Sequence record: CP025712.1
Length of the DNA: 46,701 nt
Reading direction: 5' to 3' (one strand)
From: Escherichia phage YDC107_1
Shown here: positions 18,300-41,193 of the stretch, piece by piece
How the letters are laid out: the number at the start of each line of letters is the position of its first letter
Numbering within the stretch: the stretch's first letter is position 1
Made by a program: the position numbers and the translations under genes
The notes under the pieces: model-generated
Database searches by the model: none
Told to the model about the DNA's origin: nothing
What the model saw: the letters and a program-made list of their open reading frames with translations, nothing else

Positions 18300-18317
18300 G
18301 TGCGACCACGGTCGCAC
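18300..18317. repeat. 18-bp palindrome GTGCGACCACGGTCGCAC (candidate SopB-type centromere or protein-binding site), copy 1
   Basis: Perfect palindrome just upstream of the moron gene start. Confidence 0.6.
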
Positions 18318-18340
18318 GCTCCTGAATACATGCCCTGTTT

Positions 18341-18509
18341 CTTCCACCCTCGCACAGGACTGGCGAGCATGAGGGACAAACCCGCGAATCATTAGCGCGG
18401 TAAAAACCCGGTGTGCATCGTTTTTGATTATTTCCGCACACTCGCGCAGAGGAGTTCCCCGTCGGGCTACGGTCATGGTTAATGCGGAAATACGGCGACG
18501 ATGCAGCGC
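18341..18509. repeat. Direct repeat copy B (partner of 17391..17559)
   Basis: See copy A; together they bracket the 17680..18276 gene. Confidence 0.85.
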
Positions 18510-18519
18510 GGTATTTAAT

Positions 18520-18537
18520 GTGCGACCACGGTCGCAC
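18520..18537. repeat. 18-bp palindrome GTGCGACCACGGTCGCAC, copy 2
   Basis: Intergenic, between the DUF4406-like gene and direct repeat B. Confidence 0.6.
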
Positions 18538-18556
18538 ACGAGAAACAAAGAGATTT

Positions 18557-18868
18557 TTATGCTACAGAGGAACAAGCTGGCGGGTAATTCAGCGTAGTGA
18601 ATACCGGCATCTCCATCTTGTATGCGTAATGATACTCAGCAGTTGCTCCAGCAGACGCTTTCCAGCCAGGAAGCATCAAAATAGCATCAGCACAACGAAG
18701 CATTGCAAAGCAAATATCCATGTATTCACGTTGTGTCAGACCATTAGGCAAAGTGGCTGGATTCAAGACAGAGTGACCATGTCGTGACAAACGATCTGCC
18801 TCTTTATTAAAGGCGTCACGATTAAAGTTCTCATATCCAGTCATTGGCCCGGCAATATAAATTTTCAT
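18557..18868 (-). CDS. DUF4406-like small protein (nucleoside deoxyribosyltransferase-like fold)
   Basis: 103 aa, MKIYIAGPMTGYENFNRDAF… N-terminus typical of that family as I recall; function unknown. Confidence 0.5.
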   Translation of the reverse strand: MKIYIAGPMTGYENFNRDAFNKEADRLSRHGHSVLNPATLPNGLTQREYMDICFAMLRCADAILMLPGWKASAGATAEYHYAYKMEMPVFTTLNYPPACSSVA

Positions 18869-18909
18869 TCACTATCCAACAAATTGAGTTCGTTTTTGAT
18901 ACAGAGGGA

Positions 18910-19377
18910 TTAATTCGGGCATTGCGTCTTGATGTATTCCTGAAGCGTTCTCAGTGCTGTCTGGTCTCTGATGATTCCGTCCCGGATACCGAGAACGTTT
19001 CGTCCAGCAACTGGAGAGAGTTCGACGGTGGCATCATTGCCCATGCCGGAGGCGCTGGAGGTTTCGGCTGAGGATGGCACAGAGCATTTTCCTTTGACGA
19101 GCACCCGACCACCATTATCAAGCTTGCGCCGAAGAGCATCATTTTCAGCTTTCGCATCAGCCAACTCCTTCGTGTATTTTGCATCGAGCGCAGCAACATC
19201 ACGCTGACGCTGCTGCATGTCAGCGATGGTGGCGGTCGCCTGCTTCAGCTCACTGACTTTTTTATCACGCTGTTCTTTGTAGGCGATGGCGTTATCACGG
19301 TAATGATTAACAGCCCACGACAGGCAGACGATGATGCAGATAACCAGTGCGGAGATAATTGCGGTTACTCTGCTCAT
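18910..19377 (-). CDS. Rz: Spanin inner-membrane subunit Rz
   Basis: Lambda Rz-like N-terminus [30 protein letters not shown], coiled-coil periplasmic domain. Confidence 0.85.
18951..19157 (-). CDS. Rz1: Spanin outer-membrane lipoprotein Rz1 (embedded in Rz, +1 frame)
   Basis: [21 protein letters not shown] lipobox followed by a Pro-rich segment. Confidence 0.7.
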
Positions 19378-19874
19378 TGCTGCCCCCACAAACAGACTTC
19401 ACGCTCAATCTCACGGCGAGTCATCAGCCCTTTCCATTGCTTACCGCCAGCATATGTCCAGCGACGTAGTTGATCACATGCACCTTTGATATCGCCCTGG
19501 TTGATTTTGCGAAGAAGTGTCGATGTTCTGAAATTGCCTGCACCCACGTTGTAAACGAACGAGTAAAGAGCACCACGCGTTGTTTCCGGTATATCGACTT
19601 TGATGTACGGGTTAATTTGTCTGGCGACAGTAGCAAGGTCTTTATTCAGGAGAGCTTTGCATTCTGCTTCGGTATACGTTTTACCGAGCATAATGTCTTT
19701 TCCTGTATGCCCGTAACATACAGTCCATACACCAACGATGTCTTTGTAGGGGTTATGTCTCACACCTTCCAGACCATCGTTGCCGCTCGGACCAGAGATG
19801 AGCACAGATGCTATGGCAATAGCCCCGCCACCAATAGCAGTTGCGACAGCTTTGCGTAATGATGACTGCATCAT
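19374..19874 (-). CDS. R: SAR endolysin (T4-type lysozyme, phage 21 R-like)
   Basis: 166 aa; N-terminal SAR segment [16 protein letters not shown] then lysozyme domain; close to P21 R as I recall. Confidence 0.88.
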
Positions 19875-20143
19875 ATTTCCTTCGGTGCTCTCTTTCCCAA
19901 TTCACCAATAACCATCGCCGTGGCGGAAATATTATTGGCATCAGTTTTATCCAATATGTCCTGCAATATCTTCGTGCGCTTCATCTGCTCGCGTTTATTG
20001 AGCCGGTATGTAAGTACACCGAGGATAATGCTGAACGCGACACCGATAATGAAGCCCCAATCCTGCAATGACAGGCTGGCAAAGAACGCAGTAAGACCAG
20101 CACTACCATAAGATGCGCTGCTGTATCGTTCATCCATCTTCAT
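19871..20143 (-). CDS. S: Holin, probably pinholin-type
   Basis: 90 aa; MKM dual-start motif; weakly hydrophobic TMD1 and TMD2 [18 protein letters not shown]; immediately upstream of a SAR endolysin. Confidence 0.65.
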
Positions 20144-20238
20144 ATCTCTTACCTCGCAATAGTTGCTGAGGTTTCGGCTTGGAAACTATACGGCGAGAAA
20201 TAACCCCATCAAAAACGGCAGGGGAATATATTCTTCAG

Positions 20239-21315
20239 TTACTCAAATAACTTTTTCACTTCATCAACTGTCTGAAGATAACGTTCACCCTCAATCTCAA
20301 TACCGATTGCCTGACGACCTAACTTCAGCGCGGCTTTAATAGTAGAGCCTGATCCCATAAAGAAATCGGCAACGATATCTCCGGGGCGGGAACTACTTTT
20401 TATAATATGTTCCATCATCGCTGCAGGTTTTTCACATGGGTGCTTGCCAGGATAATATTGCACAGGAGGAAACTCCCATACATCGGTATAAGGTACATCA
20501 GCAGTAACATGAAATGGGCGGCGCAAATTTTCATACTGAGCCTTCAAATCATCATACTGCTTCTTTACTTCCTCATAACGCAATTTCAGATCGCTATAAC
20601 GCTTTTCATGTTCTGAATAATCAACATTAAAAGGATATGGACACGGGACACCGAGTGAATCTGCCTTCCTGCGAAATAATTCGCATAGTTTATTAAAATC
20701 ACTTAATGATGGAAGCCGCCACTGCGAATAAGAAAACCAGTGCGAACACATCTGCTTTCCTGTTGCTGAATTAATGTCTGCGGCTGATATATCTAACTGA
20801 CGGCGAGCCAGCGAAAAAGCATCAATTAGTGGAGAAAAAATATTTTTTCTTAAATCTGCACATTTTGAAGCATAACCTGACTGACCTTTAGCATAACCTG
20901 ACGCGCCGTAATGCTCTGCAAATAATATTCTTTCAGTGGCAGGAAAATAAGCCCTTAAACTTTCTTTATGACAACCGCGCCACATACCACTGGGTTTAGC
21001 CCAAATGATATGGTTCAGAACATTGAAACGGTCGCGAGTTAATAATTCAATTTTTGACGCAAGGCGAGAGCCGGTAAACATATACAGGCTGCCATTAGGG
21101 GCCAATATCCGCCAAAATTCTGCCAAAAATTCATCAATCCACCCCAAAAAGTCAGCATCGCTATCCCACTGGTTATCCCATGCGTTAGCCTTTACGCCGA
21201 AGTATGGTGGGTCTGTTGCAATCAAATTGACCGAGTTATCAGGGATGGTTTTGATAAATTGCAGAGAATCTGCGCAAACGAGTTGCGCGCCATGAATATT
21301 AGTGGTTTTGAACAT
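20239..21315 (-). CDS. DNA methyltransferase (DPPY-type, N6-adenine or N4-cytosine)
   Basis: Motif IV LIATDPPYF near the N-terminus and motif I FFMGSGST near the C-terminus; likely start MFKTTNIHGAQ at 21315 (ORF-track start 21360). Confidence 0.8.
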   Translation of the reverse strand: MFKTTNIHGAQLVCADSLQFIKTIPDNSVNLIATDPPYFGVKANAWDNQWDSDADFLGWIDEFLAEFWRILAPNGSLYMFTGSRLASKIELLTRDRFNVLNHIIWAKPSGMWRGCHKESLRAYFPATERILFAEHYGASGYAKGQSGYASKCADLRKNIFSPLIDAFSLARRQLDISAADINSATGKQMCSHWFSYSQWRLPSLSDFNKLCELFRRKADSLGVPCPYPFNVDYSEHEKRYSDLKLRYEEVKKQYDDLKAQYENLRRPFHVTADVPYTDVWEFPPVQYYPGKHPCEKPAAMMEHIIKSSSRPGDIVADFFMGSGSTIKAALKLGRQAIGIEIEGERYLQTVDEVKKLFE

Positions 21316-21450
21316 AGCTATTATTTTTTTGCCTGGGTAAGCTAACCCGGCGATGCGCATCGCGGGTGGGCTTTAGGTTCAGCCTATAGCTCTGGCATGG
21401 GTTGACCGCAGGACAAGCTGCAACTTGTCCTGCGCCCACTTTTCAGGCAC

Positions 21451-21472
21451 AAAAAAACCGCCATAAAGGCGG
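21451..21472 (-). terminator. Rho-independent terminator on the late (minus) strand upstream of the methylase/lysis block, tR'-like position
   Basis: Minus-strand CCGCC-TTTAT-GGCGG followed by seven T. Confidence 0.5.
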
Positions 21473-21559
21473 CTTGTTGGCTGTTGGGTACAAAAAACCC
21501 AACTTAACAAAACAATAACTAAAAACCGTAATTTTGCCAAGCTTTTTCGTTTTTGTGCT

Positions 21560-21577
21560 GTGCGACCGTGGTCGCAC
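21560..21577. repeat. 18-bp palindrome GTGCGACCGTGGTCGCAC, copy 3 (opposite orientation of the central dinucleotide)
   Basis: Intergenic, in the late regulatory region. Confidence 0.6.
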
Positions 21578-21582
21578 AGTTT

Positions 21583-21810
21583 TTAGAAAGTTGCCTGCTT
21601 ATATTCATCGGTCAAAGAATATCGACCAGACCCGCTACGCTTTGCAACCCCAAAACAGATCATCTGTTCGATGATAAATTCAACGGCAGCTTGACTCAAA
21701 AAACAGGCTTCGCTTAACTCTTTCAGGGAAATGCGTGGGTATCCACGCATAACACATTCCACACTCAGGGCCGCTTCAGTCATATTTCCACGAATTTCAT
21801 TAATATTCAT
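21583..21810 (-). CDS. Hypothetical small protein
   Basis: 75-aa ORF just upstream of the terminator region; no family recognised. Confidence 0.45.
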   Translation of the reverse strand: MNINEIRGNMTEAALSVECVMRGYPRISLKELSEACFLSQAAVEFIIEQMICFGVAKRSGSGRYSLTDEYKQATF

Positions 21811-21823
21811 AACGCCTCTCTAA

Positions 21824-22063
21824 TCAATCTTGAAACTGGAAATCAACATCAGCCATAAAGCGGTTCAACTCAGCCAGTTTTGGCCCCATAGTCCCAACTA
21901 AGCGACCAGCCAGTCGGTCTGCCAGGTTGGTACTGTTGAAACCATATTCCTTTTCGAAACGTTCAACCTTCTGCCACAACTCATACAGTTCGTTAGCTAT
22001 CTCCGCAACGTCGTCGCGCATTTTTTCGTTACCTTGATAATTCATAATATCCTCCAAATTCAT
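21824..22063 (-). CDS. Hypothetical small protein
   Basis: 79-aa ORF; no family recognised. Confidence 0.45.
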   Translation of the reverse strand: MNLEDIMNYQGNEKMRDDVAEIANELYELWQKVERFEKEYGFNSTNLADRLAGRLVGTMGPKLAELNRFMADVDFQFQD

Positions 22064-22210
22064 ATAGTTAGTGGGTTATTGCCCCTCAATGACACGAACT
22101 GTAACTCTGCCAAACGAACACATCCAGTGTTATTTTTCACTTTTTAGTGAAATTTTTAATTTGCGCTTTTTTCTTGTTTTGGTGTATTTTATGGCTATGG
22201 AGGCTATAAT

Positions 22211-22522
22211 ATGTTTAACGTGATAACCCACCCTGCAGCACTGGATGAACTGCTTGAACTACCAGATGATTTGCGAGGTCGCATGACCAGATTAATTGAG
22301 CGACTGGAGAAGGAAGGCAACAAACTGAAGATGCCCCATAGCCGTGTAATAGGTGGAGGGCTTTTTGAACTACGAGTAGGGGATAAAAACATCGCAAGAA
22401 CGCTGTACGCCTACGCGACTGGTAACGAAATTTATCTATTGCATGCATTTGTAAAAAAGACACAGAAAACACCGGTGAAGGCTATCGAAATCGCCAGAAC
22501 TCGCCTGAAGGAGATGAACTGA
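22211..22522 (+). CDS. Type II toxin, HigB / Gp49-like (RelE/ParE superfamily)
   Basis: 103 aa with …GGGLFELRVGDKNIARTLYAYATGNEIYLLHAFVKKTQKTP… typical of Gp49/HigB; SD GGAGG; upstream palindrome TTTCACTTTTTAGTGAAA at 22135-22152 is a candidate operator. Confidence 0.8.
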   Translation: MFNVITHPAALDELLELPDDLRGRMTRLIERLEKEGNKLKMPHSRVIGGGLFELRVGDKNIARTLYAYATGNEIYLLHAFVKKTQKTPVKAIEIARTRLKEMN

Positions 22523-22809
22523 TGAAAGCGAAAGGCATCCCGTTTAACGAAGTAAAAGAAAAACTTCTCAACACTCCAGAAGCCATCAAAGGATATGAAG
22601 AGGCCGATAAAGAGCTGGAGATGGTCGAAATGTTATACGAAATGAGGGAAAGAGCAGGTTTAACGAAATCAGCTCTGGCTGAACGAATGGGGTTGCGACC
22701 GTCAGCCATCAGCCGCCTGGAAAGCAATCCTTTAGGGGCAAGTATGAAAACTTTGGCTAAATATGCTCATGCCTGCGGCGCAACCATCGATATTCGCGCT
22801 GTTTATTAA
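22522..22809 (+). CDS. HigA-like HTH (XRE family) antitoxin
   Basis: 95 aa, HTH LTKSALAERMGLRPSAISRLE; start overlaps toxin stop (ATGA). Confidence 0.8.
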   Translation: MKAKGIPFNEVKEKLLNTPEAIKGYEEADKELEMVEMLYEMRERAGLTKSALAERMGLRPSAISRLESNPLGASMKTLAKYAHACGATIDIRAVY

Positions 22810-22851
22810 TTAGACTCTTTTACTACCCCGTCCAGAAGGGCGGGGTGTGCA

Positions 22852-23055
22852 TCAATGATGTGAACGCTCAACAGCGATAGTTTTCTGACAATGCTGGGCA
22901 ATCTCTCGCGACATGTTGATGAGTCGTGAAACCTCACCAATATGTAGGCTGGCTTCTGGAGAAGCCAGGGTGACGCTAACCAGATCCAGAACGGCGTCAA
23001 TATCTCTCAAATTTGAATCGAGTTGTTCAAGAGTTGATACGGCTGCTTCAGACAT
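22852..23055 (-). CDS. Hypothetical small protein
   Basis: 67-aa ORF, weak RBS. Confidence 0.3.
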   Translation of the reverse strand: MSEAAVSTLEQLDSNLRDIDAVLDLVSVTLASPEASLHIGEVSRLINMSREIAQHCQKTIAVERSHH

Positions 23056-23137
23056 TAAATCTCATACCATTTAACTAAAAAAGGTTTTTTATACTGTATA
23101 AAATTACAGGATAAAACTCAAACTTTACGGTCAATTT

Positions 23138-23380
23138 TCAATGAATTAACTGCGTAAACTGCTGTGTGACCCGATACTTATGCTCTCTCCCTATGCCACG
23201 ATCAACTTTCTCAAGAAGTCCAGTACGGACAGCAGAATCAAGCATCCTTTTAACAATTCTGCTATTTAACCCAACATCAAAAGCAAGCATCGAAGCGAAA
23301 ACAAACCCATCACCACCATCAGAAAAGCTCTTTTCGCTCCGTTTTCGTATCATTTCAAAAAGCAATGCCTTTTTATCCAT
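23138..23380 (-). CDS. Hypothetical small protein
   Basis: 80-aa ORF; no family recognised. Confidence 0.45.
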   Translation of the reverse strand: MDKKALLFEMIRKRSEKSFSDGGDGFVFASMLAFDVGLNSRIVKRMLDSAVRTGLLEKVDRGIGREHKYRVTQQFTQLIH

Positions 23381-23398
23381 TTATCCCTCCGTGACCAG

Positions 23399-23725
23399 TC
23401 ACACTTTGAGCGCAAGTTTCAGCCTCGTGGTTGTAAGGTGGCATGACCCTTCGCCATCAAAAATGCATTCTGAAACAGGCATTTTTTGACCACATCGCGG
23501 GCAAGTAGTAGATAGCTGCTTCTGCAGCTCCTTATAGTTTTTCCTGATCAGCAAACCAATGACTTCGTTCTCCGAATATGGAACTCGCCCTGGTCTACGC
23601 AATACACAAATTTCCCCCAACATACGTAACTCGTCAGGTTCTAGAATCCAGTCCCGTCTTGATGTGCCTTCCTTCTTCAACCGTTCCCTGCGTCTCCTTT
23701 GCCGTTCTGCCGGTGTCAGCGCCAT
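23399..23725 (-). CDS. Hypothetical protein with C-terminal zinc-ribbon-like cysteines
   Basis: 108 aa; basic N-terminus; CPRCG…C…C. Confidence 0.45.
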   Translation of the reverse strand: MALTPAERQRRRRERLKKEGTSRRDWILEPDELRMLGEICVLRRPGRVPYSENEVIGLLIRKNYKELQKQLSTTCPRCGQKMPVSECIFDGEGSCHLTTTRLKLALKV

Positions 23726-23740
23726 AAATCCTCCTGAAAA

Positions 23741-24400
23741 TTACTTAACCCAACTAACTACACCGCCAGCGGCCACAACCGCCCTTTCACAATCACGCTC
23801 ATATCTCAAAGGTTGAAATACACCATCAATAAAATATTTATCTCCACCAAACGCTGCAGGAAGTGAAACAGAAAACTGAACATGACCATCCGGAGTTACC
23901 GGAGAGTTGCCAGCCTCATACGCGACCCTTATCCAGTGCATAAACATTTCAGTACTTACACATCCACAATCAACATCAATTTTGTCATGCTGCTGTTCCA
24001 GCCATTGCTCAAAAGTTAACTTGTAAGTTTGGCTTACAGGTTTGGCTTCCAGTTCTGCTACGCGCTGTTTTGCAGCATCCAGTTCAATCGACAATTTTTC
24101 CAACTGCTCTTTATGCTTCTTGTATTCCTGATATGCGTGCCAGGACTGACCTTTGCGCACACTATCAGTAATATCAGTAATCTGTTCTGGTGTTAGCGTG
24201 GTCAGTGGCTGTGCTGGGAAAATCAGCACTTTCCCGGAATCCCAATCAAAACCAGCGTGAATTGACTGAACCTCAACTGAGGGTGTTGAACCAATGCTGC
24301 CAGGCGAATGAATAACGATTGTTACATCCATATCGCGACGATGGCTGTGGTTGTTGGACAAAATACGATTCACCAACTCAGAAAATTTGGAAAATTTCAT
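23741..24400 (-). CDS. Hypothetical protein
   Basis: 219-aa ORF, translationally coupled to the next gene; no family recognised. Confidence 0.5.
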   Translation of the reverse strand: MKFSKFSELVNRILSNNHSHRRDMDVTIVIHSPGSIGSTPSVEVQSIHAGFDWDSGKVLIFPAQPLTTLTPEQITDITDSVRKGQSWHAYQEYKKHKEQLEKLSIELDAAKQRVAELEAKPVSQTYKLTFEQWLEQQHDKIDVDCGCVSTEMFMHWIRVAYEAGNSPVTPDGHVQFSVSLPAAFGGDKYFIDGVFQPLRYERDCERAVVAAGGVVSWVK

Positions 24401-24687
24401 GCTGATTCCCCTTTATCTGCTCTCTCCTGTCGGAACATCACTATCATCAGGTCGCCTTTTGTCGCTATCTTGGCTGTTGTGCCTGGCTCAATGCGGCTAA
24501 GTTCAAATGCGTCATAGAACGCCTCTAACACTTTCTGGCGTCTTTCCTGTTTGCGGTGCTTTCCCCACTGCTTTAGAAAAACAGAGGCCGCCCACTTCCC
24601 CGCACTGAACATGATGTAAAACCAACCGAGAAGTGCCAGACCGATATTTAGGGCCGTATCGATCGTTATCGTGGTGTCGATATTCAC
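24397..24687 (-). CDS. Hypothetical membrane protein
   Basis: 96 aa with one predicted TM segment LNIGLALLGWFYIMF. Confidence 0.45.
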   Translation of the reverse strand: MNIDTTITIDTALNIGLALLGWFYIMFSAGKWAASVFLKQWGKHRKQERRQKVLEAFYDAFELSRIEPGTTAKIATKGDLMIVMFRQERADKGESA

Positions 24688-25106
24688 TACGCCACCTCCT
24701 GTAAATTTCCCTGATAAAAAGCCAGCACACGCTGCATAACTTCACTTTTCCGGCAATCGTGACAAATCATGTTCAAGCGCCTGTCGTAACGACGTATTTC
24801 TCCGTCAGGTAATGACCAGATAAGGTCTGGATCAACCACTACCGATGTCTTCGGCTTTACTCTTGATAGTTTTTTACGGGCGTTTTGCCAGTCCTTGCGT
24901 GCTTGTGCAGACAGAAATATCCCGGAGCCAGAGATATACAAATCACCACTGGCAGCAAGCTCTCTTGATAAACGACTAACAGCACACCGGCTAATACCAG
25001 TTTCATCCGCAAGTTGCCTAACCGTTCCTCGTCCATTCAGGCGCACGAGTTCCACAATTTGTTTATTCAGTTCTTCCCTCTGTTCTGGTGTAAAAGCCTT
25101 TGCCAT
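24687..25106 (-). CDS. Putative HTH DNA-binding protein
   Basis: 139 aa; HTH-like RQLADETGISRCAVSRLSREL. Confidence 0.5.
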   Translation of the reverse strand: MAKAFTPEQREELNKQIVELVRLNGRGTVRQLADETGISRCAVSRLSRELAASGDLYISGSGIFLSAQARKDWQNARKKLSRVKPKTSVVVDPDLIWSLPDGEIRRYDRRLNMICHDCRKSEVMQRVLAFYQGNLQEVA

Positions 25107-25705
25107 TACGATTCTCCTTGCCCTTTTACAAGACGGGAGAAAATTGCGGATACATACTTAGCCTGATGAATAGCATCAGCCAGGGCATTGTGTCGTTCAC
25201 CATCAAATGGCATATCTTTTTTAGGATTGAAACCAATAAACTGACCAAGATTAACGATTGTTCGAACATCCTGATCATTAAAATATTCCCACGGACAGGC
25301 TAAGCCAACGCGCTCATAAGCACCGCGTAAAATTACATTGTCGAATGTTGCTCCATTTCCCCATACTTTCAATTTTTTTAAATTACATGCATGGCAAGTA
25401 ATAAAGTGTGATAATTCAAAAAGTGCATCCTTAATATTAAGGGCATCATTAGTACAAATTGCGGCTCTGGCTTCCTTGCTCTGTTTCAACCACCATAAAA
25501 TGGTATCACCATCGGCGACACCACCATTCAACATCGAGCTTCTGAGATTCACTGGCACATAAAAAGTAGGACCTAATTCCTCACCTTCTGGAGAAAAAAA
25601 CACTGCCCCGATAGAAACAATTGGAGCACATGTGTTAGTACCCATTGTTTCAAGGTCAATCATTACATCAGACCGTTTCCTGTCGTAAATAATCTGATTA
25701 GTCAC
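25106..25705 (-). CDS. DEDDh-type 3'-5' exonuclease (DnaQ-like)
   Basis: Exo I motif MIDLETMG and Exo III H-x4-D (HNALADA). Confidence 0.75.
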   Translation of the reverse strand: MTNQIIYDRKRSDVMIDLETMGTNTCAPIVSIGAVFFSPEGEELGPTFYVPVNLRSSMLNGGVADGDTILWWLKQSKEARAAICTNDALNIKDALFELSHFITCHACNLKKLKVWGNGATFDNVILRGAYERVGLACPWEYFNDQDVRTIVNLGQFIGFNPKKDMPFDGERHNALADAIHQAKYVSAIFSRLVKGQGES

Positions 25706-25728
25706 GAATAATTCTCCTCAACGTTTAT

Positions 25729-25932
25729 CTATACCCAAATTTTCTGTTGATATGTTCTGGATGGTTTTGGTGTTCTTTCTGATTCAGGTAAATGAACATA
25801 AACGCAATATCCATCACCTAAAAAATCAGAACGAACAACCAGAACTTTCTTACCACGCCGCCGATAAGTATCTGAAAGACGCTCTGCTTCATCATGCGTC
25901 ATCGGCCCCTGTTTAAATGGCGTTATTTTCAT
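25729..25932 (-). CDS. Hypothetical small protein
   Basis: Starts at MKITPFKQGPM; the ORF-track start at 25956 is a GTG inside the palindrome. Confidence 0.35.
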   Translation of the reverse strand: MKITPFKQGPMTHDEAERLSDTYRRRGKKVLVVRSDFLGDGYCVYVHLPESERTPKPSRTYQQKIWV

Positions 25933-26233
25933 TTTCTTGTGCGACCACGGTCGCACCCTCTCTGATTTCCAAGTAACGCTTAATCCAAAGATTTTCTATA
26001 TGCTTATTACCTGGCTGATTTGATAAATACCAATCGGCAATTACAGACTGCTTATTACTATCTGGTCGTGTCCTGTAACCACAAGTTGGACACCAAATAA
26101 CATATTCATTTCTTACCCCCGAATACCTTAATTCTGGCTTCGACGGTTTCCTGAACATAACTTGTTTACAAAGGCAGAATGGCACTTCCTGCCCGATGGC
26201 GTTTGATGATTTCACTGCGCTTCTCCGCCGCAT
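25913..26233 (-). CDS. Hypothetical protein with CxxC zinc-ribbon motif
   Basis: 106-aa ORF with CPTCG; start uncertain. Confidence 0.4.
   Translation of the reverse strand: MRRRSAVKSSNAIGQEVPFCLCKQVMFRKPSKPELRYSGVRNEYVIWCPTCGYRTRPDSNKQSVIADWYLSNQPGNKHIENLWIKRYLEIREGATVVAQENENNAI
25939..25956. repeat. 18-bp palindrome GTGCGACCACGGTCGCAC, copy 4
   Basis: At the junction of two small early genes. Confidence 0.6.
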
Positions 26234-26876
26234 TTAATAATGCGGTTCGATTTAAGCTCAGACATCGCGACTTAATTAAAAGCCAGCGTTCTTTATAATC
26301 TTGTCTCCAGCTATCAATAGATATATTCAGTAGAAAACTCAGATGCCTGTCCTGTTCTCTCTCATCAACTGCCTCAGCACACGTAAGTTCTGATTTAACC
26401 TGTTGTGCCGCGTAATAAATCAATTTCCGCATGGCTTTTTTCGTGGAGGCCTTCATTTTTTTAAAGCCGCCCCCCGAATGAGCAACCAGAAAATCAAGCC
26501 ATAACCACTGACAAACAATCACATCATTGTTGTAATCAGGCTTGCATCCGTAGCAATAATAAAGCCAGGCTGATTCCTCGTTATTCAACTGACCAATAGC
26601 CCTGCGCCAGCTGGCGCTCTGAAAATCAATATCAGTGAGCAACATTGATGATTGTTTAAATGTTTTCCCCTGATGGAATCTAACCGGCTCAGCAGGAACG
26701 GACACTTCGTATGAGTTATCATCCCCCACACTGATTGACCGGACTGGTTTATTGTTAAACCGTCCTGATCTACCGAGACGCATCTGCTCAAGCTGGACCT
26801 CCAGAATGCCACGCTGGCGATAATGAACATCAGCCAATGCCGTAGAGACGCAGCTGCGTATATACTCAAGCTCCAC
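26166..26876 (-). CDS. Hypothetical early protein directly downstream of cro (regulator or Q-like candidate)
   Basis: 236 aa from a GTG start with SD AAGGAG; contains CYGC…C cysteines; family not recognised. Confidence 0.5.
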   Translation of the reverse strand: MELEYIRSCVSTALADVHYRQRGILEVQLEQMRLGRSGRFNNKPVRSISVGDDNSYEVSVPAEPVRFHQGKTFKQSSMLLTDIDFQSASWRRAIGQLNNEESAWLYYCYGCKPDYNNDVIVCQWLWLDFLVAHSGGGFKKMKASTKKAMRKLIYYAAQQVKSELTCAEAVDEREQDRHLSFLLNISIDSWRQDYKERWLLIKSRCLSLNRTALLNAAEKRSEIIKRHRAGSAILPL

Positions 26877-27087
26877 GCTTACGACTCTCCTTAATCGACT
26901 GCTTTACCCGCCGAGTTGTAAAGTCACTCTTCAGCTTATAAGCAGTACGAACTTCAATATCGCTTTGCCGCAATGAAGGAATCTCTCCAGCGGTTAACCA
27001 TTGGTAAACAGCTCCGGGTGTTACACCTACCCCTGCCGCTGCTTTTTCTACACTGCCAAAATGGCGAATAAGTTCTTCTGGTTTCAT
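26866..27087 (-). CDS. cro: Cro-like HTH repressor
   Basis: 73 aa from MKPEELIRHFGSVEKAAAGVGVTPGAVYQWL; divergent from the repressor gene. Confidence 0.7.
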   Translation of the reverse strand: MKPEELIRHFGSVEKAAAGVGVTPGAVYQWLTAGEIPSLRQSDIEVRTAYKLKSDFTTRRVKQSIKESRKRGA

Positions 27088-27118
27088 GTTGTTATTATAA
27101 ACAATAAACAACAATTAA

Positions 27119-27156
27119 AGCCAGCTATAATAAATAAATTTTATAGCCAGCTATAA
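27119..27156. promoter_or_regulatory. Operator region between cro and cB: two AGCCAGCTATAA repeats
   Basis: Repeats at 27119-27130 and 27145-27156; the second lies in the near-palindrome TTATAGCCAGCTATAA; AT-rich promoter context. Confidence 0.5.
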
Positions 27157-27178
27157 GAAGATCATTTATGATTACAGT

Positions 27179-27775
27179 ATGAAAACACGAGGCGAACGAC
27201 TGAAAGCACGCCGTTTAGAGATGAAGCTGACGTTGCGAGAAGTTGCTGAGGCTGTCGATATCTCTATAGCAGGCGTCCAAAACTTAGAACGTGGCGACGT
27301 AATGCCGTCACTGGAGATAGGTATTGCCCTGGCTAAGTGCTTACGCAAGCCAGTGCATTGGGTGCTATATGGGACAGAATATGACCCTGATCGCATTCCT
27401 GTTATTGGCACAACTGAAAGTGGGCCGGATGAAGAGTGGAAGCCGGGACAGGTTCCAAATACTGAGCGATTCCTGCCATTCATCAGCCAGCGCAATACTG
27501 TGTATGCGTTAACTATCAGCAATCTTACGCAGGGAAACTATCAGCCAGGCGATTTTCTCCTGGTCGATTCTGCGCTGGAACTGGTCCCCGGCGAGGATGT
27601 TCTGGTTCGTGATACTGCAGGAAATATCACTATCCAGCGCCTGGCCCGTTTTGATGATGAAAATTACTATCTGGATGGAACAAACTCACAACGCGCCATC
27701 TTCAGGAAAAGCGATCTTGAATTTGTTCACCAAATAGTCGGAACGATCAAATCATTCATGGTTGAGGGTAGATGA
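27179..27775 (+). CDS. cB: Prophage repressor (N15 CB / lambda CI analogue): HTH plus degenerate LexA-like C-terminal domain
   Basis: 198 aa; N-terminal HTH LTLREVAEAVDISIAGVQNLERG. Confidence 0.8.
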   Translation: MKTRGERLKARRLEMKLTLREVAEAVDISIAGVQNLERGDVMPSLEIGIALAKCLRKPVHWVLYGTEYDPDRIPVIGTTESGPDEEWKPGQVPNTERFLPFISQRNTVYALTISNLTQGNYQPGDFLLVDSALELVPGEDVLVRDTAGNITIQRLARFDDENYYLDGTNSQRAIFRKSDLEFVHQIVGTIKSFMVEGR

Positions 27776-27869
27776 CTTAATACGGGGTTTATTGTTTGCT
27801 GTAAATCTGGTTTAATGCAGGGCATATGTTCTGTGGGTTGACTCAGGTTACAGCAGCAGAAAAAAGACG

Positions 27870-27905
27870 AAAAAAAACCCGAGTCGGCAAACTCGGGTCC
27901 TTTTC
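27870..27905. terminator. Bidirectional rho-independent terminator after the repressor gene
   Basis: A-run, CCCGAGT-CGGCAAA-ACTCGGG, then T-run. Confidence 0.5.
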
Positions 27906-28020
27906 AGGAAGCAGCCACAACAACGCGACAGATTCCGTCAATTCAAGATGCGTTTATTGTGGCTGCTCCTGCGGATTTTTTCAACCCGAAAAAACATAAT
28001 TCGCATGGAATGGCTAAAAA

Positions 28021-31000
28021 ATGACATTAAACGATTTCTATGCGGATCGCTTTGGCAGCGATCCGTTCTCGCTAATTGAAGCAGCACGGGATGAACTAAC
28101 CGAGCTGGCACAGATGGCTGGTATCAACTGGCCTGCCTGTTCCGACAACATCCAACTCAACCCTCGCGGGGGGGTTGAGCGTTACTCTTCATACAATAAA
28201 ACATCTCCAGAAGCTCTCGAAAAGAGCCTGAAAGGACGCGTAGAAATTTACTCCAGGCTGGAACACAGCAAAGGGATTGATTACCCGTTCATTAACTTCG
28301 TCCATAAAGGCAGCGATGCTGGCTCATGGAGCGGTTTCTCCTTCCTGTTTTCTGAATATCGCCGTGAGCAACAACGGAATAATGCGACCGTGGTCGCACA
28401 ACCGGAAGAAGAACGGGAAAGAATAGAACGTCAGGCCGAAGCACGTCGTCGCCGTGAAGAACAAAAACGAATTAATGACCTGAAAAACAACCAAATGGAC
28501 CATGAACGTTTGCTGGGATGGCTGGCATTCCACAGCGCGTGGGAACATGCTCAGGCTGAAGACGGCTCATGGCCATATGCGATTAAAAAAGGTATTCGTG
28601 ACGTTTTTAGTTCATGTGATGTGCGTCGCGTGACCAGTCACGACAGTGCGAAATGGAGCCGGGGGCCAACCACATATATGGCTATCCCTCTGGCTCACCT
28701 GGACGGTCGTTATGATGGTCGTATTGTGGGTTGGCAGCGAATCGACAAACAAGGTGGGAAATACCAGACCAGCGCAGTAACCAGCGGCGATTTCGTCGGT
28801 GCCTGCTTTGTTATCGGTGAGCTGAAAGGGGCGCAAAACATCGCTGTTACAGAAGGTTTTGCTACTGGTGCATCCATCTGGCTTGCCACGAAAAAAGATA
28901 AACGCTTTGACGCGGTGGTTGTCGCTGTATCCGCTAACAACATGGTTCATGTTGTGGAACAACTGGTAAACATGTACCCGGCGGCAAAAATCACCTGCGC
29001 ACTGGATAATGACCGGAAATCTGCCACAGAAGGAAAAGGGAATACCGGCCTGCGGACTGGCTATGAAATCTTATCGAAATTCAACGATGTCCGCTGCGTC
29101 TACCCAACTTTTGAAGACGATCCGCAAATGGAGTGCAGTGACTTCAACGACCTGCACAAACTACGTGGACTTCGTGAAACAGCACGTCAACTATTTGCAA
29201 CAGCAAACCGCCTGAAAACCGGCACTGATTTGCTATCTCTGACGCTCAACCGCCTGAAGACAATTAAGCGGGATAACCGTCGTACTTTTGCCAAAGAGCT
29301 GCTGAGAGCGGTGGATATTGGCATGCTAACCTGTCCGGTTCCTAACAGTCCGTCAGATTTGTTTAACATGTTCTGTATCGTTCTGCGTGAAATGGGGCTG
29401 GAAAATATCTATCGCGCTACGGTAAAAGACCACATTGCCCGTCGCCTGAATAAAAAATGCCGTATTGCCCAGGCTCCGCGCTCTTTCAGCGAACGCATAA
29501 CTGATCCCAATAAACGCCCTCAACATATCACCTATAAGCGTTTTGAAACTTCGGTAATGACCTATGACGTCCTGAAGTACGTGCAATCACTACAGGGGAT
29601 CGTCATCGTTCGTGCTGGTATGGGTTCCGGCAAATCTACTGGATTGTTACGACCGTTAATGCATAGCTCAGAACGCGGTATCTCTGTAGCTCACCGTGTT
29701 TCCCTTATTGGTGGCCTGTGGGAAATGATGACTGAAGGAAAAGGTGTAAAAGCCGATATCCTGCACTATCAGGACCCTGGCTATCAGGAAATGGCTCCAT
29801 ACGCCAGTAAACTGACCATCTGCATAAACTCGATTGTTAAAAACTGCTGGCAACCGTTGATGCGCCAGCACGACTATTTTGGCTTTGACGAGGCCACACA
29901 AGGGCTACGTGCCGTTCTTTCCGGTCGGGCTATGGAAAACCCAGTGGCTGTATTCAATACGCTAATTGACGCGCTGGCCAGAACGGAACAACACCCAATA
30001 ATGGTGGATGCTGATGCGAACGATCTGCTGGTTGACCTGGCTGAACTGGCTATGAAACGCCGTGAAGAACTAGGTTTACCGGCATGGCTGCAGATCCACG
30101 TAATTGAATTACCTGTTGATGTTCGCAACCGCGAAACAGGTGAGCCAATCCGGGTTTTTTATACAGAAAAAGATCGCATCATGACCGAGGTGGTGAAAGC
30201 TGTATCGGATGGCGAAAAAATCATGTTGGCCACCGACAGCTCCACCTTTGCAGAAGATGTGACCGCCACCCTGAGAATGCATTTTCCTGGTAAGAAATTT
30301 CTGTGCGTAAACCAGAAAAGCAAACAGGATGAAGAAGTCGATGCTTTTACCAACCAGCCAAAAGTAATGGTGATGAAATACGATGGACTGATCTACAGCC
30401 CGTCGATTTCCTCCGGGGTGTCATTTGAGAAAAAACATTTTGACCGTCATTTCGGCATGTTCTGCGGTGAAGTTGTGCCCAGCGACGCAGTGCAAATGCT
30501 ACGCCGCGACCGTACAGCAAAAGAATTTATTATCGGCTTTGATAAAGCTCGTGCAAAACGCGAGACTGATCCGCAAAAAATAGAACGTGCATTCGCCCAG
30601 GCATTACTTGCTACCGCAGGCATGAACGGTGAACTGACGGATGTCGTTTTCGATGGCGACCGTATATCAATGGGGGTGGCCAATACCGACTTTACCAGGA
30701 TGAAAATTAAAGCTGCCGCTATTGAAGCGTCTGCGCGTAACGACTACGCCAGCAACATGATCTGCATCATGCACAGCGACGGTTATAAGGTATCGCCATT
30801 AGCTACTGATTATGCCGCAAATGATTTTGGTAAAGAGCTGCGCAAAGAAGCGCGGGATATTGTGTGGGAACAGACGCTGGATCTGCACCTCAATACAGAG
30901 ACACCAGAAGAATCAGAGCGTGAAGAACTACTAAAAAAACGTGCGCTAACGCTTGAAGAACAGGCAAAACTTGTCCGCTGGGATATTGAGAACGAACTGA

Positions 31001-32004
31001 AACTACCGGTTGAAGAAGGCACGCTGAAATTCTATTTCGATGGTGCTCGAGACAAAATTCGCCGTTATGAAACGATGCTGCTTGATGAAGTCACAGCCCG
31101 TCGTTATGACCGTGAAGAAGCGGCTATCAATTTTACATACGCATACCGCCAGACCGGACAGTGGCAATATTTTGTGGTGACCGCGATGACACGCGAGCAG
31201 GCTGATGATGTATTCAAAGCGAAATTTCCGGGAATAATCGACTACAAGGTAAAAGCCACCCCAGCTGTTGAGGTCGGCATGCGCGGATTCTATGCGCTTA
31301 AATCAGCAACTCTCCGGCAGTATTTTATCGACTGCGGTATCGACCCTGAAACTATGACTGGCGAAGCGACGCAGGAACGCCTTAAGTTCGCTCGAGATAA
31401 TCTCATGACAGCAGAACGCCGTGACCTGTTGAATAACGTTCTGCGCATTGGTGGTTTTATGACACCAAAAGGGAAGCCTAAAGTGCCGGAAGCACTGTTT
31501 AAAAACATCTGCGACTCTCTCGGCCTAAAAACAGGAAAACGTCGCGGCAGAGATGGCGATAAGCGCCCGACATTGCGTTTTGTTGAGCCTGAGTCTGTAG
31601 CATTTATGCTTGATATTCTTACGCAACGTCAGGAGGACGGTATGACGTTGAAAGCTCGCAAGGCAGAAAAATCAACGACCGAAGTGGATCGCGATTTGTC
31701 ATTAAATATATATATGAATGGTGAAACGCGATCCACAAACACGGAGGAACAGGATCCCCCTCGTTCAGCTATATCACAGGCTTTGGCTGTATTGCCGGTG
31801 GCTGTTCCTGAGTCCTGGGCGATGAGTGCTCTGCCATCAGCCGAACTGGAATCTATCAGGGGGTGGTCAGTTGACAGCATCGCATACACGTTTGCAGCCC
31901 TTTATATGACTGAGTTTATGGATTTGCTGTCCGGTCATGAGATTAAGTTGCTGAAGGCTTTTATAGGCCCACGACATGCCAGCGATGAGTTTTGTGTAGT
32001 TTAG
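28021..32004 (+). CDS. repA: Replication protein: Toprim primase fused to a helicase/NTPase (N15 RepA / P4 alpha-like)
   Basis: 1327 aa; Toprim motifs (VTEGFATGASIW, ALDNDRKSATEGKG); Walker A GMGSGKST; Walker B-like FDEATQ. Confidence 0.9.
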   Translation: MTLNDFYADRFGSDPFSLIEAARDELTELAQMAGINWPACSDNIQLNPRGGVERYSSYNKTSPEALEKSLKGRVEIYSRLEHSKGIDYPFINFVHKGSDAGSWSGFSFLFSEYRREQQRNNATVVAQPEEERERIERQAEARRRREEQKRINDLKNNQMDHERLLGWLAFHSAWEHAQAEDGSWPYAIKKGIRDVFSSCDVRRVTSHDSAKWSRGPTTYMAIPLAHLDGRYDGRIVGWQRIDKQGGKYQTSAVTSGDFVGACFVIGELKGAQNIAVTEGFATGASIWLATKKDKRFDAVVVAVSANNMVHVVEQLVNMYPAAKITCALDNDRKSATEGKGNTGLRTGYEILSKFNDVRCVYPTFEDDPQMECSDFNDLHKLRGLRETARQLFATANRLKTGTDLLSLTLNRLKTIKRDNRRTFAKELLRAVDIGMLTCPVPNSPSDLFNMFCIVLREMGLENIYRATVKDHIARRLNKKCRIAQAPRSFSERITDPNKRPQHITYKRFETSVMTYDVLKYVQSLQGIVIVRAGMGSGKSTGLLRPLMHSSERGISVAHRVSLIGGLWEMMTEGKGVKADILHYQDPGYQEMAPYASKLTICINSIVKNCWQPLMRQHDYFGFDEATQGLRAVLSGRAMENPVAVFNTLIDALARTEQHPIMVDADANDLLVDLAELAMKRREELGLPAWLQIHVIELPVDVRNRETGEPIRVFYTEKDRIMTEVVKAVSDGEKIMLATDSSTFAEDVTATLRMHFPGKKFLCVNQKSKQDEEVDAFTNQPKVMVMKYDGLIYSPSISSGVSFEKKHFDRHFGMFCGEVVPSDAVQMLRRDRTAKEFIIGFDKARAKRETDPQKIERAFAQALLATAGMNGELTDVVFDGDRISMGVANTDFTRMKIKAAAIEASARNDYASNMICIMHSDGYKVSPLATDYAANDFGKELRKEARDIVWEQTLDLHLNTETPEESEREELLKKRALTLEEQAKLVRWDIENELKLPVEEGTLKFYFDGARDKIRRYETMLLDEVTARRYDREEAAINFTYAYRQTGQWQYFVVTAMTREQADDVFKAKFPGIIDYKVKATPAVEVGMRGFYALKSATLRQYFIDCGIDPETMTGEATQERLKFARDNLMTAERRDLLNNVLRIGGFMTPKGKPKVPEALFKNICDSLGLKTGKRRGRDGDKRPTLRFVEPESVAFMLDILTQRQEDGMTLKARKAEKSTTEVDRDLSLNIYMNGETRSTNTEEQDPPRSAISQALAVLPVAVPESWAMSALPSAELESIRGWSVDSIAYTFAALYMTEFMDLLSGHEIKLLKAFIGPRHASDEFCVV
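28383..28398. repeat. 16-bp core TGCGACCGTGGTCGCA, copy 5, inside repA
   Basis: Outer bases not complementary (16 of 18); mirrored copy at 45080-45097. Confidence 0.5.
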
Positions 32005-32021
32005 AGGGTAGAAGCGTGGGA

Positions 32022-32288
32022 ATGATGCAAGAGTGCCTCGTTTTGATTGAAGGGTATGATCCGTATGTTGTTAACGTCAGCAGAATGGATACTGGCTATA
32101 GCGACTACAAAACTGGTCGTGAACTGCCGTTCACCATCATCAGGATGAATAGCTTTGGCGATGATGATGCTGTTTATTGCTGTATAGCCAGCGATAAAAA
32201 CATGGAAGACCGGACAGATGAAGCCCGTATGCTATTGAGGAAATATAAGGTAAAGCCGTTATCAGAGAATAACGCTGAGAGGGGTTAA
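32022..32288 (+). CDS. Hypothetical protein
   Basis: From ATG MMQECLVLIEGYDP (ORF-track start 31992 is TTG). Confidence 0.45.
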   Translation: MMQECLVLIEGYDPYVVNVSRMDTGYSDYKTGRELPFTIIRMNSFGDDDAVYCCIASDKNMEDRTDEARMLLRKYKVKPLSENNAERG

Positions 32289-32290
32289 AA

Positions 32291-32686
32291 ATGGCAGTTC
32301 AATCATACAAATACGAATCCCCTTTGGATAAGGGATACATTCGTATCAAGTTAAGTCGTTCTCAGCATAAGGCTATTTTTAAGGTAAGGAAAATTCGCAT
32401 ATTGGATGCGTATGCGTATTACTACAACGGTGAAAATGTTGTTGTTGAACACTTTCTTGCACGATGGTTTGTAGCTCTGATTTTTGTCCCTCTCCTGTTA
32501 ATTGGTACTTTTGTGGATGGTTTTCCTAGTACATGGCGGGAGATAAAGAAAGGCCTATTCCCGCGTAAGTACGGCAGATTTTCGCAAGATAGCTGGCGAG
32601 TTATACCTGGTAAACATTCTGTGGATGAGCAGCCGATTGTTGATTACTGGTTGAAGCATATGGCTGATGCTAAAAAAGTTGATTGA
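32291..32686 (+). CDS. Hypothetical membrane protein
   Basis: 131 aa with SD GAGAGGGG; TM segment WFVALIFVPLLLIGTFV. Confidence 0.5.
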   Translation: MAVQSYKYESPLDKGYIRIKLSRSQHKAIFKVRKIRILDAYAYYYNGENVVVEHFLARWFVALIFVPLLLIGTFVDGFPSTWREIKKGLFPRKYGRFSQDSWRVIPGKHSVDEQPIVDYWLKHMADAKKVD

Positions 32687-32704
32687 GTTGTGGAAGGAGT
32701 ATTT

Positions 32705-32929
32705 ATGAACTGTAACAAAAATGAAGAAACTCGCCTGGTTTGGACGGTAGTAATCGGAGATAAAGAGGGCGGTGAAGAGCCTCATTTTGATTATTCTGTG
32801 GCTTTGCAGGCTCTCATCCTTGAAGCGCAGAGATACCAACAAGAGATGCAGAAGAACCCTCAACTGGAACCTCGACCAATTGGCCTATTCTGCGAGCGAG
32901 TATCAGCGGCGGAACTCCCTGATATCTGA
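32705..32929 (+). CDS. Hypothetical small acidic protein
   Basis: MNCNKNEETRLVWTVVIG…; SD GGAAGGA. Confidence 0.45.
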   Translation: MNCNKNEETRLVWTVVIGDKEGGEEPHFDYSVALQALILEAQRYQQEMQKNPQLEPRPIGLFCERVSAAELPDI

Positions 32930-33120
32930 TGCCCTCCAACAGCTGATCAGGTTCTGATCAGTTAGTAAAGCAAACTATAAAAACACCTGTCCCCGTGACT
33001 GGTCACGGGGTAAAATGTCTTTGCAAATTATTGACGTGTGCGTCGTTTTGACGGTAAAGTTACTTCGCTGCGGTAAATCCCGTAGCCGGGACTCTCAACC
33101 CCGAAATCCGAACGACGCAC

Positions 33121-33143
33121 AACACGCGCCAGCGTGTTTTTTT
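33121..33143 (+). terminator. Rho-independent terminator ending a short untranslated transcript upstream of the anti-repressor operon
   Basis: AACACGC-GCCA-GCGTGTT followed by a T-run. Confidence 0.45.
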
Positions 33144-33309
33144 GTGTGTATGAGCCTGCGCATATCCGAATTATGGTGGCTCAGGTGGGGCAGCCGAAAG
33201 GCTGGCCGGTGTCGTTTGGGCCGGTGTTGAGAACCCCGCTTGGGCTACCACCCCATAGAGATTCTCAACTCTGGTGGTAGCACTGTTTTACCAAACAAGA
33301 GTGCATACC

Positions 33310-33474
33310 ATGTTCAAATTCAAATTTGCGGCAGTCGTTCGCACAGACAAAAAGTCACACATCCATCATCTTTCCACCATCGCGTCATCTGAACGGGAAG
33401 CTCGTCGCCAGTTCGCCAGCCGGTTTGTCCTGGTATTGTCTGCCCGTATTCCGGTGCGCGAGGTGGCTGCATGA
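33310..33474 (+). CDS. Small protein, first gene of the anti-repressor operon (Icd-like position)
   Basis: 54 aa from MFKFKFAAVVRTDKK. Confidence 0.35.
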   Translation: MFKFKFAAVVRTDKKSHIHHLSTIASSEREARRQFASRFVLVLSARIPVREVAA

Positions 33475-33704
33475 ATCAGGTAAAAATGAACACTGTTGGC
33501 CTGCTGGAATCGTTGGATGAACGTCTGGCTCAGGTCTATGCGCTTGTGTCATCAGCCCATCGTACAGTCTCCAGTTGTGAGGCGTCGATTTATCTCTCAG
33601 AAGCCGGGAAGCTCCTTCAAATCGCGTGTGAGTTGACACACAAAGCACAGGGGTATTCAGCATCTCTCTCGTCGCAATTGCAGCACAATAAGGAGGCCAA
33701 ATGA
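33471..33704 (+). CDS. Hypothetical protein (anti-repressor operon)
   Basis: 77 aa, SD GAGGTGG, ATGA-coupled to neighbours. Confidence 0.45.
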   Translation: MNQVKMNTVGLLESLDERLAQVYALVSSAHRTVSSCEASIYLSEAGKLLQIACELTHKAQGYSASLSSQLQHNKEAK

Positions 33705-34477: not shown

Positions 34478-34649
34478 GGTTGGCCAGCCCGAATTGATGC
34501 CCTTCTTAGTGAGGGGAAGCCTCGCAGTCTGGGCGGTGATGTCTGTGGTTGCAGCCGCGTTTCCTCCGTTACTTCTGCCCTTTGCAGGGGGCAGGCGAGG
34601 CAGGCCACATAACAAGGCACCGATTAATTCGGTGCCTTTAACGTATGCT

Positions 34650-36551: not shown

Positions 36552-36714
36552 CTTTCCTCTCCTGATTATCCGCTCGGATTATCGTAACACAATTTGAGAA
36601 TAAGATAACTAATAACGCGTTAACTTAGGCACAAACTAACAGAACACAATAACGGATAATAAATAAAAACACAATATCGGAACGTTAAAATTTGTTCCTT
36701 GACTTTGTTCTGAA

Positions 36715-36770
36715 AATCAGCACATAATTTCCCATTATACGCGCGTATAATGGGAAATTATGTGCTGATT
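36715..36770. other. telRL-like telomere resolution site; centre of dyad symmetry between 36742 and 36743
   Basis: AATCAGCACATAATTT-CCCATTATACGCGCGTATAATGGG-AAATTATGTGCTGATT, same architecture as N15 telRL as I recall. Confidence 0.8.
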
Positions 36771-36933
36771 TTCAGAACAAAGTCAAGGAACAAATTTTAA
36801 CGTTCCGATATTGTGTTTTTATTTATTATCCGTTATTGTGTTCTGTTAGTTTGTGCCTAAGTTAACGCGTTATTAGTTATCTTATTCTCAAATTGTGTTA
36901 CGATAATCCGAGCGGATAATCAGGAGAGGAAAG

Positions 36934-40778: not shown

Positions 40779-40796
40779 AAATACTCCTTCCACAAC

Positions 40797-41191: not shown

Positions 41192-41193
41192 TT

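Follow-up and report, generated by a model that had tools for sequence, protein, structure and literature searches.

Two partition systems serve as a reference for the DNA sites considered here. In plasmid F, the centromere sopC is built of 10–12 tandem 43-bp repeats directly adjoining sopB, and its 16-bp inverted repeat is bound by SopB. In phage N15, the centromere is a set of four inverted repeats (IR1–IR4), each present as a single dispersed site, and the sop operon lies at a distance, on the other arm of the genome. Here, we describe an N15-like element, Escherichia phage YDC107_1 (CP025712.1), of which a stretch of 46,701 nucleotides was analysed; the window refers to this whole stretch. 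Five independent copies of an 18-bp palindrome are dispersed over the window. They very probably serve a linear plasmid-prophage as the centromere (parS-like) sites of its N15-type Sop system for partition. An earlier sequence-only reading had proposed them as SopB-type sites. This assignment is supported by identity to validated N15 sites, by synteny, by conservation among relatives, and by the cognate N15-type SopA and SopB proteins of near-identical complete elements.

The F and N15 systems are homologous but differ in specificity. Their SopB proteins share 49% identity; N15 SopB works with IR1–IR4, whereas F SopB does not (PMC7205306, PMC2910045). Between the F and N15 sites, each half-site differs in a single nucleotide, at position 4 (PMC7205306, PMC2910045), and experiments with F/N15 hybrid SopB proteins showed that site specificity resides in the helix-turn-helix (HTH) of SopB (PMC2910045, PMC7205306). 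A third relative is the Klebsiella phage phiKO2, whose structural genes are of a different type. Its GenBank record (NC_005857) lists four 18-bp features as 'putative plasmid partitioning site', all of which read TGCGACCACGGTCGCA. The more distant chromosomal parS/ParB (Spo0J) systems likewise use 16-bp palindromes as scattered single sites that nucleate ParB complexes. However, chromosomal parS sites have another consensus (TGTTNCACGTGNAACA) and cluster around oriC, and their ParA/ParB proteins are of the chromosomal type, not of the type Ia plasmid type with its long SopA N-terminus.

Searching the window for GTGCGACC-NN-GGTCGCAC with up to two mismatches returned six matches and no further copies, where dinucleotide-preserving shuffles gave an expectation of 0.01. 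Four matches are perfect and two agree at 17 of 18 positions (Table 1), the one at 28382 beginning ATGCGACC. The 16-bp core, TGCGACC-NN-GGTCGCA, is exact in all six (18301, 18521, 21561, 25940, 28383 and 45081) and was not matched in any shuffled sequence. The copy at 45080 was considered as a sixth site and rejected, as it falls within a mirror duplication around 36742/36743. This leaves five independent exact cores, all with C at position 4 of each half-site. They occur singly at spacings of 220 bp, 3.0 kb, 4.4 kb and 2.4 kb, and in the relatives described below they lie far from the sop operon. The counts and coordinates of the sequence-only reading, five copies in the unique part and one mirrored copy, were correct. 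Its placement of four copies between genes and one in repA agrees with both the annotation of the related phage PhiR46_1 and the map of open reading frames (ORFs).

Table 1. Candidate centromere sites and associated features; coordinates refer to the window unless another record is named.
Feature	Position	Strand	Match and context
Centromere-type site, cos-proximal copy b (IR4-like), GTGCGACCACGGTCGCAC	18300..18317		Perfect 18-mer; corresponds, with copy a, to N15 IR4; situated between the DUF4406 gene and the final gene ahead of cos; flanks lack homology
Centromere-type site, cos-proximal copy a (IR4-like)	18520..18537		Perfect 18-mer; N15 counterpart as for copy b
Centromere-type site, IR3 equivalent	21560..21577		Perfect 18-mer; 19 bp upstream of the late-promoter -35 hexamer (TTGGCA-17-TATTGT, aligned with the annotated N15 p52 -35/-10)
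Centromere-type site, IR2 equivalent	25939..25956		Perfect 18-mer; 210 bp downstream of the gene for the Q antiterminator; distance from Q about 200 bp in both genomes
Centromere-type site, IR1 equivalent in repA	28382..28399		17/18, 16-bp core perfect; in repA at codon ~121/122 in both genomes; flanks 88% identical
Mirror image of the 28382 site, not independent	45080..45097		From inverted duplication of the telomere-proximal 10 kb
190-bp element between the two cos-proximal sites	18323..18509	-	Second copy at 17372-17559
Late promoter-like site TTGGCA-17-TATTGT	21512..21540	-	Homologous to annotated N15 p52
Q-type antiterminator gene	26166..26876	-	PF06323, E 4e-84
repA (N15 gene 37-type primase/replicase)	28021..32004	+	Contains the IR1 equivalent
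Protelomerase gene (telN type)	34650..36551	-	Four TelK/ResT Pfam domains
Inverted duplication around axis 36742/36743, putative hairpin telomere (telL)	26776..46701		Arms 26776-36742 and 36743-46701
ParA of PhiR46_1 (PhiR46_1 coordinates)	44653-45822		Beside telR, beyond the part covered by the window
ParB of PhiR46_1 (PhiR46_1 coordinates)	43667-44656		Beside telR, beyond the part covered by the window

Comparison with N15 reveals an identical palindrome. A scan of the N15 genome for TGNGACC-NN-GGTCNCA found exactly four sites, at 33480, 35931, 41125 and 45562, all with C/G at the variable positions. The published IR1–IR4 oligonucleotides read GTGCGACC-AC/TC/AT/AC-GGTCGCAC (PMC7205306 Table 4), and their flanks are the same as those at the four genomic sites. 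At the level of sequence, the window palindrome is thus base for base the published N15 centromere site, the motif that was used experimentally as IR1–IR4 (PMC7205306). The same core is found in phiKO2. N15 has four sites and the window five, since the cos-proximal one is doubled here around a 190-bp element. The IR1 copies are imperfect in different ways: the outermost G is replaced by A in the window, whereas the change in the N15 GenBank record is at the core edge. In that record IR1 (33478-33497) reads GAGCGACCACGGTCGCAC, and the published IR1 oligonucleotide is GTGCGACCACGGTCGCAC (PMC7205306 Table 4); the one-base mismatch reflects either an idealised oligonucleotide or a strain or sequence difference.

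The F centromere is a more remote match. The window motif is identical to the F inverted repeat at 14 of 16 positions, and F has G where the window has C at position 4 of the half-site (TGGGACC versus TGCGACC). The sopC core given in the sequence-only reading, TGGGACCACGGTCCCA, is that of the consensus in PMC3597684, and the difference of one base per half-site that it described is the one reported in PMC2910045. The window contains no tandem array of 43-bp repeats and its position 4 is C, so the sites are not of the F sopC type.

The positions of the sites are conserved as well. The flanks of the IR1, IR2 and IR3 equivalents are 86–88% identical to those in N15, and these three sites are syntenic between the two genomes. 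Four contexts are common to the window, N15 and phiKO2: within repA, downstream of Q, ahead of the late promoter, and in the late region between the lysis genes and cos. phiKO2 has one site at each of these positions. The order of Q gene, IR2, about 4 kb of intervening DNA, IR3 and then the late promoter with its terminators is retained in the window, and the two terminators downstream of the promoter are conserved in the alignment with N15 IR3/p52. For the fourth context, N15 IR4 and the fourth phiKO2 site occupy the corresponding part of the late region, where they follow the gene before them at distances of 20 and 16 bp, respectively. Similarly, the 18520 site lies directly downstream of the DUF4406 gene (18868->18557, minus strand).

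To follow the sites among relatives independently of the motif, we gathered loci by similarity to the first 400 residues of RepA, which yielded 24 loci with RepA 81–100% identical. IR2 is perfect in all 24, and IR1 is found in each of the 23 loci that extend to its position. The palindrome arms are invariant across these loci, while the central dinucleotide is AC, GC, GT or AT. The central pair of the site is not read by F SopB; fixed arms around a variable centre are therefore the pattern expected of a SopB site. The copy in repA, which covers codons 121-126 (N-A-T-V-V-A), allows a comparison with the coding sequence. Among 19 distinct repA sequences, the third base is invariant in just 14 of 82 amino-acid-invariant four-fold codons, and three of these 14 (GCG, ACC and GTC) fall in the palindrome arms. 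Moreover, the amino acid of the codon preceding the core varies (N, G, H, R or C), but its third base, which is position 1 of the core, is always T. The frozen synonymous positions and the constant T indicate that the site inside repA is under selection at the level of DNA and not of protein, as judged from these codon patterns.

Neither sopA nor sopB is encoded inside the window, as the sequence-only reading had stated; its expectation that they would lie elsewhere on the element is borne out in the relatives PhiR46_1 and p13TMH22-2. In PhiR46_1, the palindrome sites are at 7.9-18.0 kb and sopAB at 43.7-45.8 kb, whereas p13TMH22-2 encodes sopA and sopB, has the same five sites, and has none in its sop arm. 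Of the complete E. coli genomes, 15 contain the PhiR46_1 sop operon, for the most part on plasmid records that also carry the replicon. The SopA of PhiR46_1 (annotated as ParA) is 93% identical to N15 SopA. Its SopB (annotated as ParB) is 74% identical to N15 SopB and 75% to phiKO2 SopB; it also has matches to structures of F SopB (3MKY, E 6e-39) and to the family SopB_HTH in Pfam.

The recognition helices of these proteins divide in the same way as the sites. The helix reads SRKIITRCIN in F, DRNIVNRCMN in N15, DRNIISRCIN in PhiR46_1 and DRNIITRCIS in phiKO2. D and N flank the conserved Arg in N15, PhiR46_1 and phiKO2, the genomes with TGCGACC sites, and S and K take their place in F. The residues flanking Arg190 have been named as likely readers of position 4, the base that differs between F and N15 (PMC2910045). 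Also conserved in SopB are F Arg219 (in ...ELSAR...) and the GxxRxxA box (GSRRRKA).

The replicon that carries the sites also resembles N15. The region is 99.2% identical to PhiR46_1, which has a 46.3-kb linear genome with telL and telR annotated, and over its entire length the unique part of the window aligns collinearly with PhiR46_1 from 37155 down to 1 at 96–99% identity. The closest records, among them PhiR46_1, OY754439 and p13TMH22-2, are 98.6–99.5% identical, with p13TMH22-2 at 98.6% over the main aligned block. In the replication and immunity region, DNA identity to N15 and phiKO2 is about 75%. Among 5426 complete E. coli genomes, 18 have this segment, and its 22 occurrences are all on plasmid records. 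In addition to repA and a protelomerase gene, the window encodes a CB/Cro pair. The window differs from N15 in having lambda-like lysis, cos and head/tail modules (93–98% identical).

One end of the element is mirrored. Positions 26776-36742 are the reverse complement of 36743-46701 with a spacer of zero, and the arms differ only by a ladder of about eight single-base offsets; the mirrored repA ORF is broken, at 970 aa instead of 1327 aa. Since PhiR46_1 position 1, its annotated telL, maps to the mirror axis, the axis coincides with telL. The same mirroring is present at both ends of p13TMH22-2 (NZ_CP019258), a related 75-kb record labelled 'circular'. The duplication looks like a (long-read) assembly running round a hairpin telomere. 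Single-base offsets between the arms are typical of hairpin read-through. With a replicon confined to plasmid records, a protelomerase gene and a hairpin axis, the element has the features of an extrachromosomal, linear, hairpin-ended prophage, and by its gene content and ends the window is an N15-like linear plasmid-prophage (telomere phage-plasmid).

SopB binding, plasmid stabilisation and a late-gene role are properties that we infer for these copies. By analogy with the described systems, each 16–18-bp inverted repeat would bind one dimer of SopB, a member of the ParB family, through its HTH, and the bound dimers would nucleate larger SopB-DNA partition complexes. SopA, a Walker-type ATPase, would then move these complexes apart over the nucleoid, such that the low-copy linear plasmid would be inherited by each daughter cell. 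The sop operon would be placed at the opposite telomere, with the sites spread over about 10 kb of the telN-proximal arm. The sites at 25939 and 21560 probably also aid late transcription in the lytic cycle. Mutations of N15 IR2 or IR3 reportedly delay lysis, and SopAB together with IR2 is said to raise p52 expression, both from the work of Ravin, Rech and Lane in 2008. Given that the arrangement of Q, IR2, IR3 and late promoter is common to N15 and the window, this second role is a reasonable inference.

A few points weigh against the centromere assignment. As sopA and sopB are absent from the window, the link to a Sop system runs through relatives that are 96–99% identical, and binding or stabilisation by this element's own sites is a prediction from sequence. 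A single copy of the same palindrome also lies by cos in integrase-type lambdoid prophages that have no sop genes. The cos-proximal pair at 18300 and 18520 could have been acquired by recombination with a lambdoid module and could be redundant. Finally, a simple terminator scan also picks out the 18300 copy, scoring it as a weak terminator-like hairpin of the minus strand.

The surroundings of the cos-proximal pair bear on several of these points. The two copies of the 190-bp element are 87–98% identical; the second copy, which lacks the palindrome, adjoins a lambda-like cosQ/cosN near 17300. Of 5426 complete E. coli genomes, 3675 contain the element; 5385 of 5426 places are chromosomal, almost always in lambdoid prophages. 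In a subset of integrase-type chromosomal prophages, a single exact copy of the N15-type palindrome lies between this element and cosQ. An example is the E. coli RM14723 chromosome (20001-20301 of its stretch), where the prophage has an integrase, P, ren, nin and Q, and is devoid of sop. For one flank type, 41 chromosomal places were counted in the 5426 genomes. Lambda has neither the 190-bp element nor the palindrome, and phages Ayreon and PhiR70_1 have the lysis region in common but not the palindrome. Rfam identified no RNA family at any palindrome site or in the 190-bp element.

A minus-strand gene for a 198-aa protein starts (ATG at 18276) 23 bp downstream of the 18300 site, and this gene (18276->17680) sits between the two copies of the 190-bp element. 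There is a caveat to calling the site intergenic. An unannotated ORF of 66 codons (18476->18276, minus strand) passes through the palindrome; it begins inside the 190-bp element, and its end overlaps the beginning of the 198-aa gene in the sequence TGATG. Neither this ORF nor the 198-aa protein has a match in Pfam.

These data raise the question of whether all five sites act in partition. It is conceivable, though unlikely, that only the sites at 28382, 25939 and 21560, whose flanking context is common to N15, work as centromeres, and that the cos-proximal pair is a passenger of the lambdoid lysis-cos region with little or no partition role. In line with this idea, the flanks of the pair do not align with those of N15 IR4, the pair brackets an element that has a second copy beside cos and is almost always chromosomal, and integrase-type prophages carry their exact copy at the end of this same element. 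Furthermore, the cos-proximal region of E. coli N15-like contigs contains one, two or three copies of the palindrome. On the other hand, N15 and phiKO2 likewise retain one site in this region, single sites of this kind can reportedly stabilise a plasmid (Ravin and Lane, in 1999), and an exact SopB site will bind SopB regardless of its origin.

The state of the copies in different contexts also argues against a mere passenger. In the flank class directly upstream of the 198-aa gene, the position of the 18300 site, every sampled copy is perfect. At the pre-cos position of lambdoid prophages, the palindrome is often decayed: 18 contigs have GTGTGACTGTGGTCGCAA, others show single asymmetric changes, and it is deleted in 4–5. 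Phage 2B8 (48653-48672) has a symmetric variant, GTGCAACC..GGTTGCAC (GTGCAACCGTGGTTGCAC), in which the dyad is kept. The contrast points to selection in the presence of SopB, under which the site would stay intact, whereas it would drift where SopB is absent. The 18300/18520 pair may nonetheless be partly redundant. Lysis-cos-head DNA is common to telomere and lambdoid phages at 93–98% identity, and we read the overall pattern as a probable module exchange between telomere phages and integrating lambdoid phages.

A more speculative idea, to which we give little credence, is that the chromosomal cos-side site is no neutral relic but a docking point for the SopB of a co-resident N15-like plasmid-prophage. 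If this were true, the chromosomal site could destabilise incoming telomere phages, as a determinant of centromere-based incompatibility or of titration; alternatively, it could give SopB a handle for silencing or boosting late genes in the resident prophage. In that case, the duplication of the site about the 190-bp element would indicate a hotspot at which the two phage types exchange DNA.

We regard it as very improbable that the palindromes act as RNA or DNA hairpins, that is, as terminators or transcript-stabilising stem-loops of the late operon, and not as protein-binding centromeres. Besides the terminator-like hairpin at 18300, this explanation can draw on the N15 GenBank record, which labels IR4 'putative rho-independent terminator', and on the symmetric double change in phage 2B8, which keeps pairing. 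However, even a weak T tail follows just one of the five copies, one copy is inside the repA coding sequence and another upstream of a promoter, and a 2-nt loop is unfavourable. The arms are invariant and do not co-vary across genomes that are only about 75% identical, and N15 sites of identical sequence serve as SopB-specific centromeres in experiments (PMC7205306). Least probable of all is a role as operators for another regulator (the CB repressor, Cro, a protein of the antirepressor system or the protelomerase): the sites are near regulatory regions, namely downstream of Q, upstream of the late promoter and near the repA start, but the N15 CB operators and telRL are annotated elsewhere and coincide with no IR position, and the F/N15 hybrid experiments map recognition of the sites to the SopB HTH (PMC2910045, PMC7205306). 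Both the terminator and the operator explanation were rejected on this evidence.

The centromere assignment is also consistent with the background frequency of the motif. The sequence-only reading would have been undermined had the motif been equally frequent in unrelated E. coli DNA. This is not so: the window has five sites in 36.7 kb, and E. coli chromosomes in the 5426-genome set have at most one, solely in phage-derived contexts and in roughly 1% of genomes. With one genome scanned per species, there were at least 120 single-site matches; those listed are from unrelated, mostly high-GC taxa (median GC 67%) and include no Enterobacterales, and thus say nothing direct about E. coli. Such scattered single matches in high-GC taxa fit a chance background. 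Among viral contigs, those with several sites have N15-type RepA, Q, CB and methylase genes as neighbours, and 95 of 120 viral-contig stretches have homologues of window or N15 genes. In metagenome-assembled genomes of Verrucomicrobia, the same 18-mer is extended to GGTGCGACC-NN-GGTCGCACC, often with GTAG before it and in one case on four contigs of a single assembled genome, and adjoins similar GGTGCGAGC..GCTCGCACC palindromes. These repeats look like a REP-like family unrelated to Sop.

Other features of the window resemble N15 as well. A RelE/ParE-family toxin gene (22211-22522, +) and an HTH antitoxin-like gene (22522-22809, +), both per the p13TMH22-2 annotation, form a pair as in N15 genes 48/49, a second plasmid-stability module between the IR3 and IR2 equivalents. 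Two Rfam matches above the gathering score, C4 antisense RNA (33169-33255, +, 71.8 bits) and isrK (33067-33142, +, 54.9 bits), fall in the region corresponding to the N15/P1-type anti-immunity (icd/ant) locus.

Taken together, the sites are a fresh instance of a known and experimentally characterised system, ordinary for its family, and not a new kind of element. Mildly new are the doubling of the cos-proximal site, the relic copies on chromosomes and the narrowed set of SopB specificity residues. The main value of the finding lies in annotation. The PhiR46_1 record leaves these sites unmarked, and with them the cis-acting elements for partition are identified in a group of telomere phage-plasmids of E. 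coli. The lone N15-type sites of chromosomal lambdoid prophages, as we read them, show that modules are exchanged between telomere and lambdoid phages. Judged by their sites and proteins, N15, phiKO2 and the lineage described here would all recognise TGCGACC, with a recognition helix that consistently differs from that of F only in the two residues flanking the Arg (D-R-N versus S-R-K). This contrast leaves fewer candidates for the residue by which SopB reads half-site position 4.

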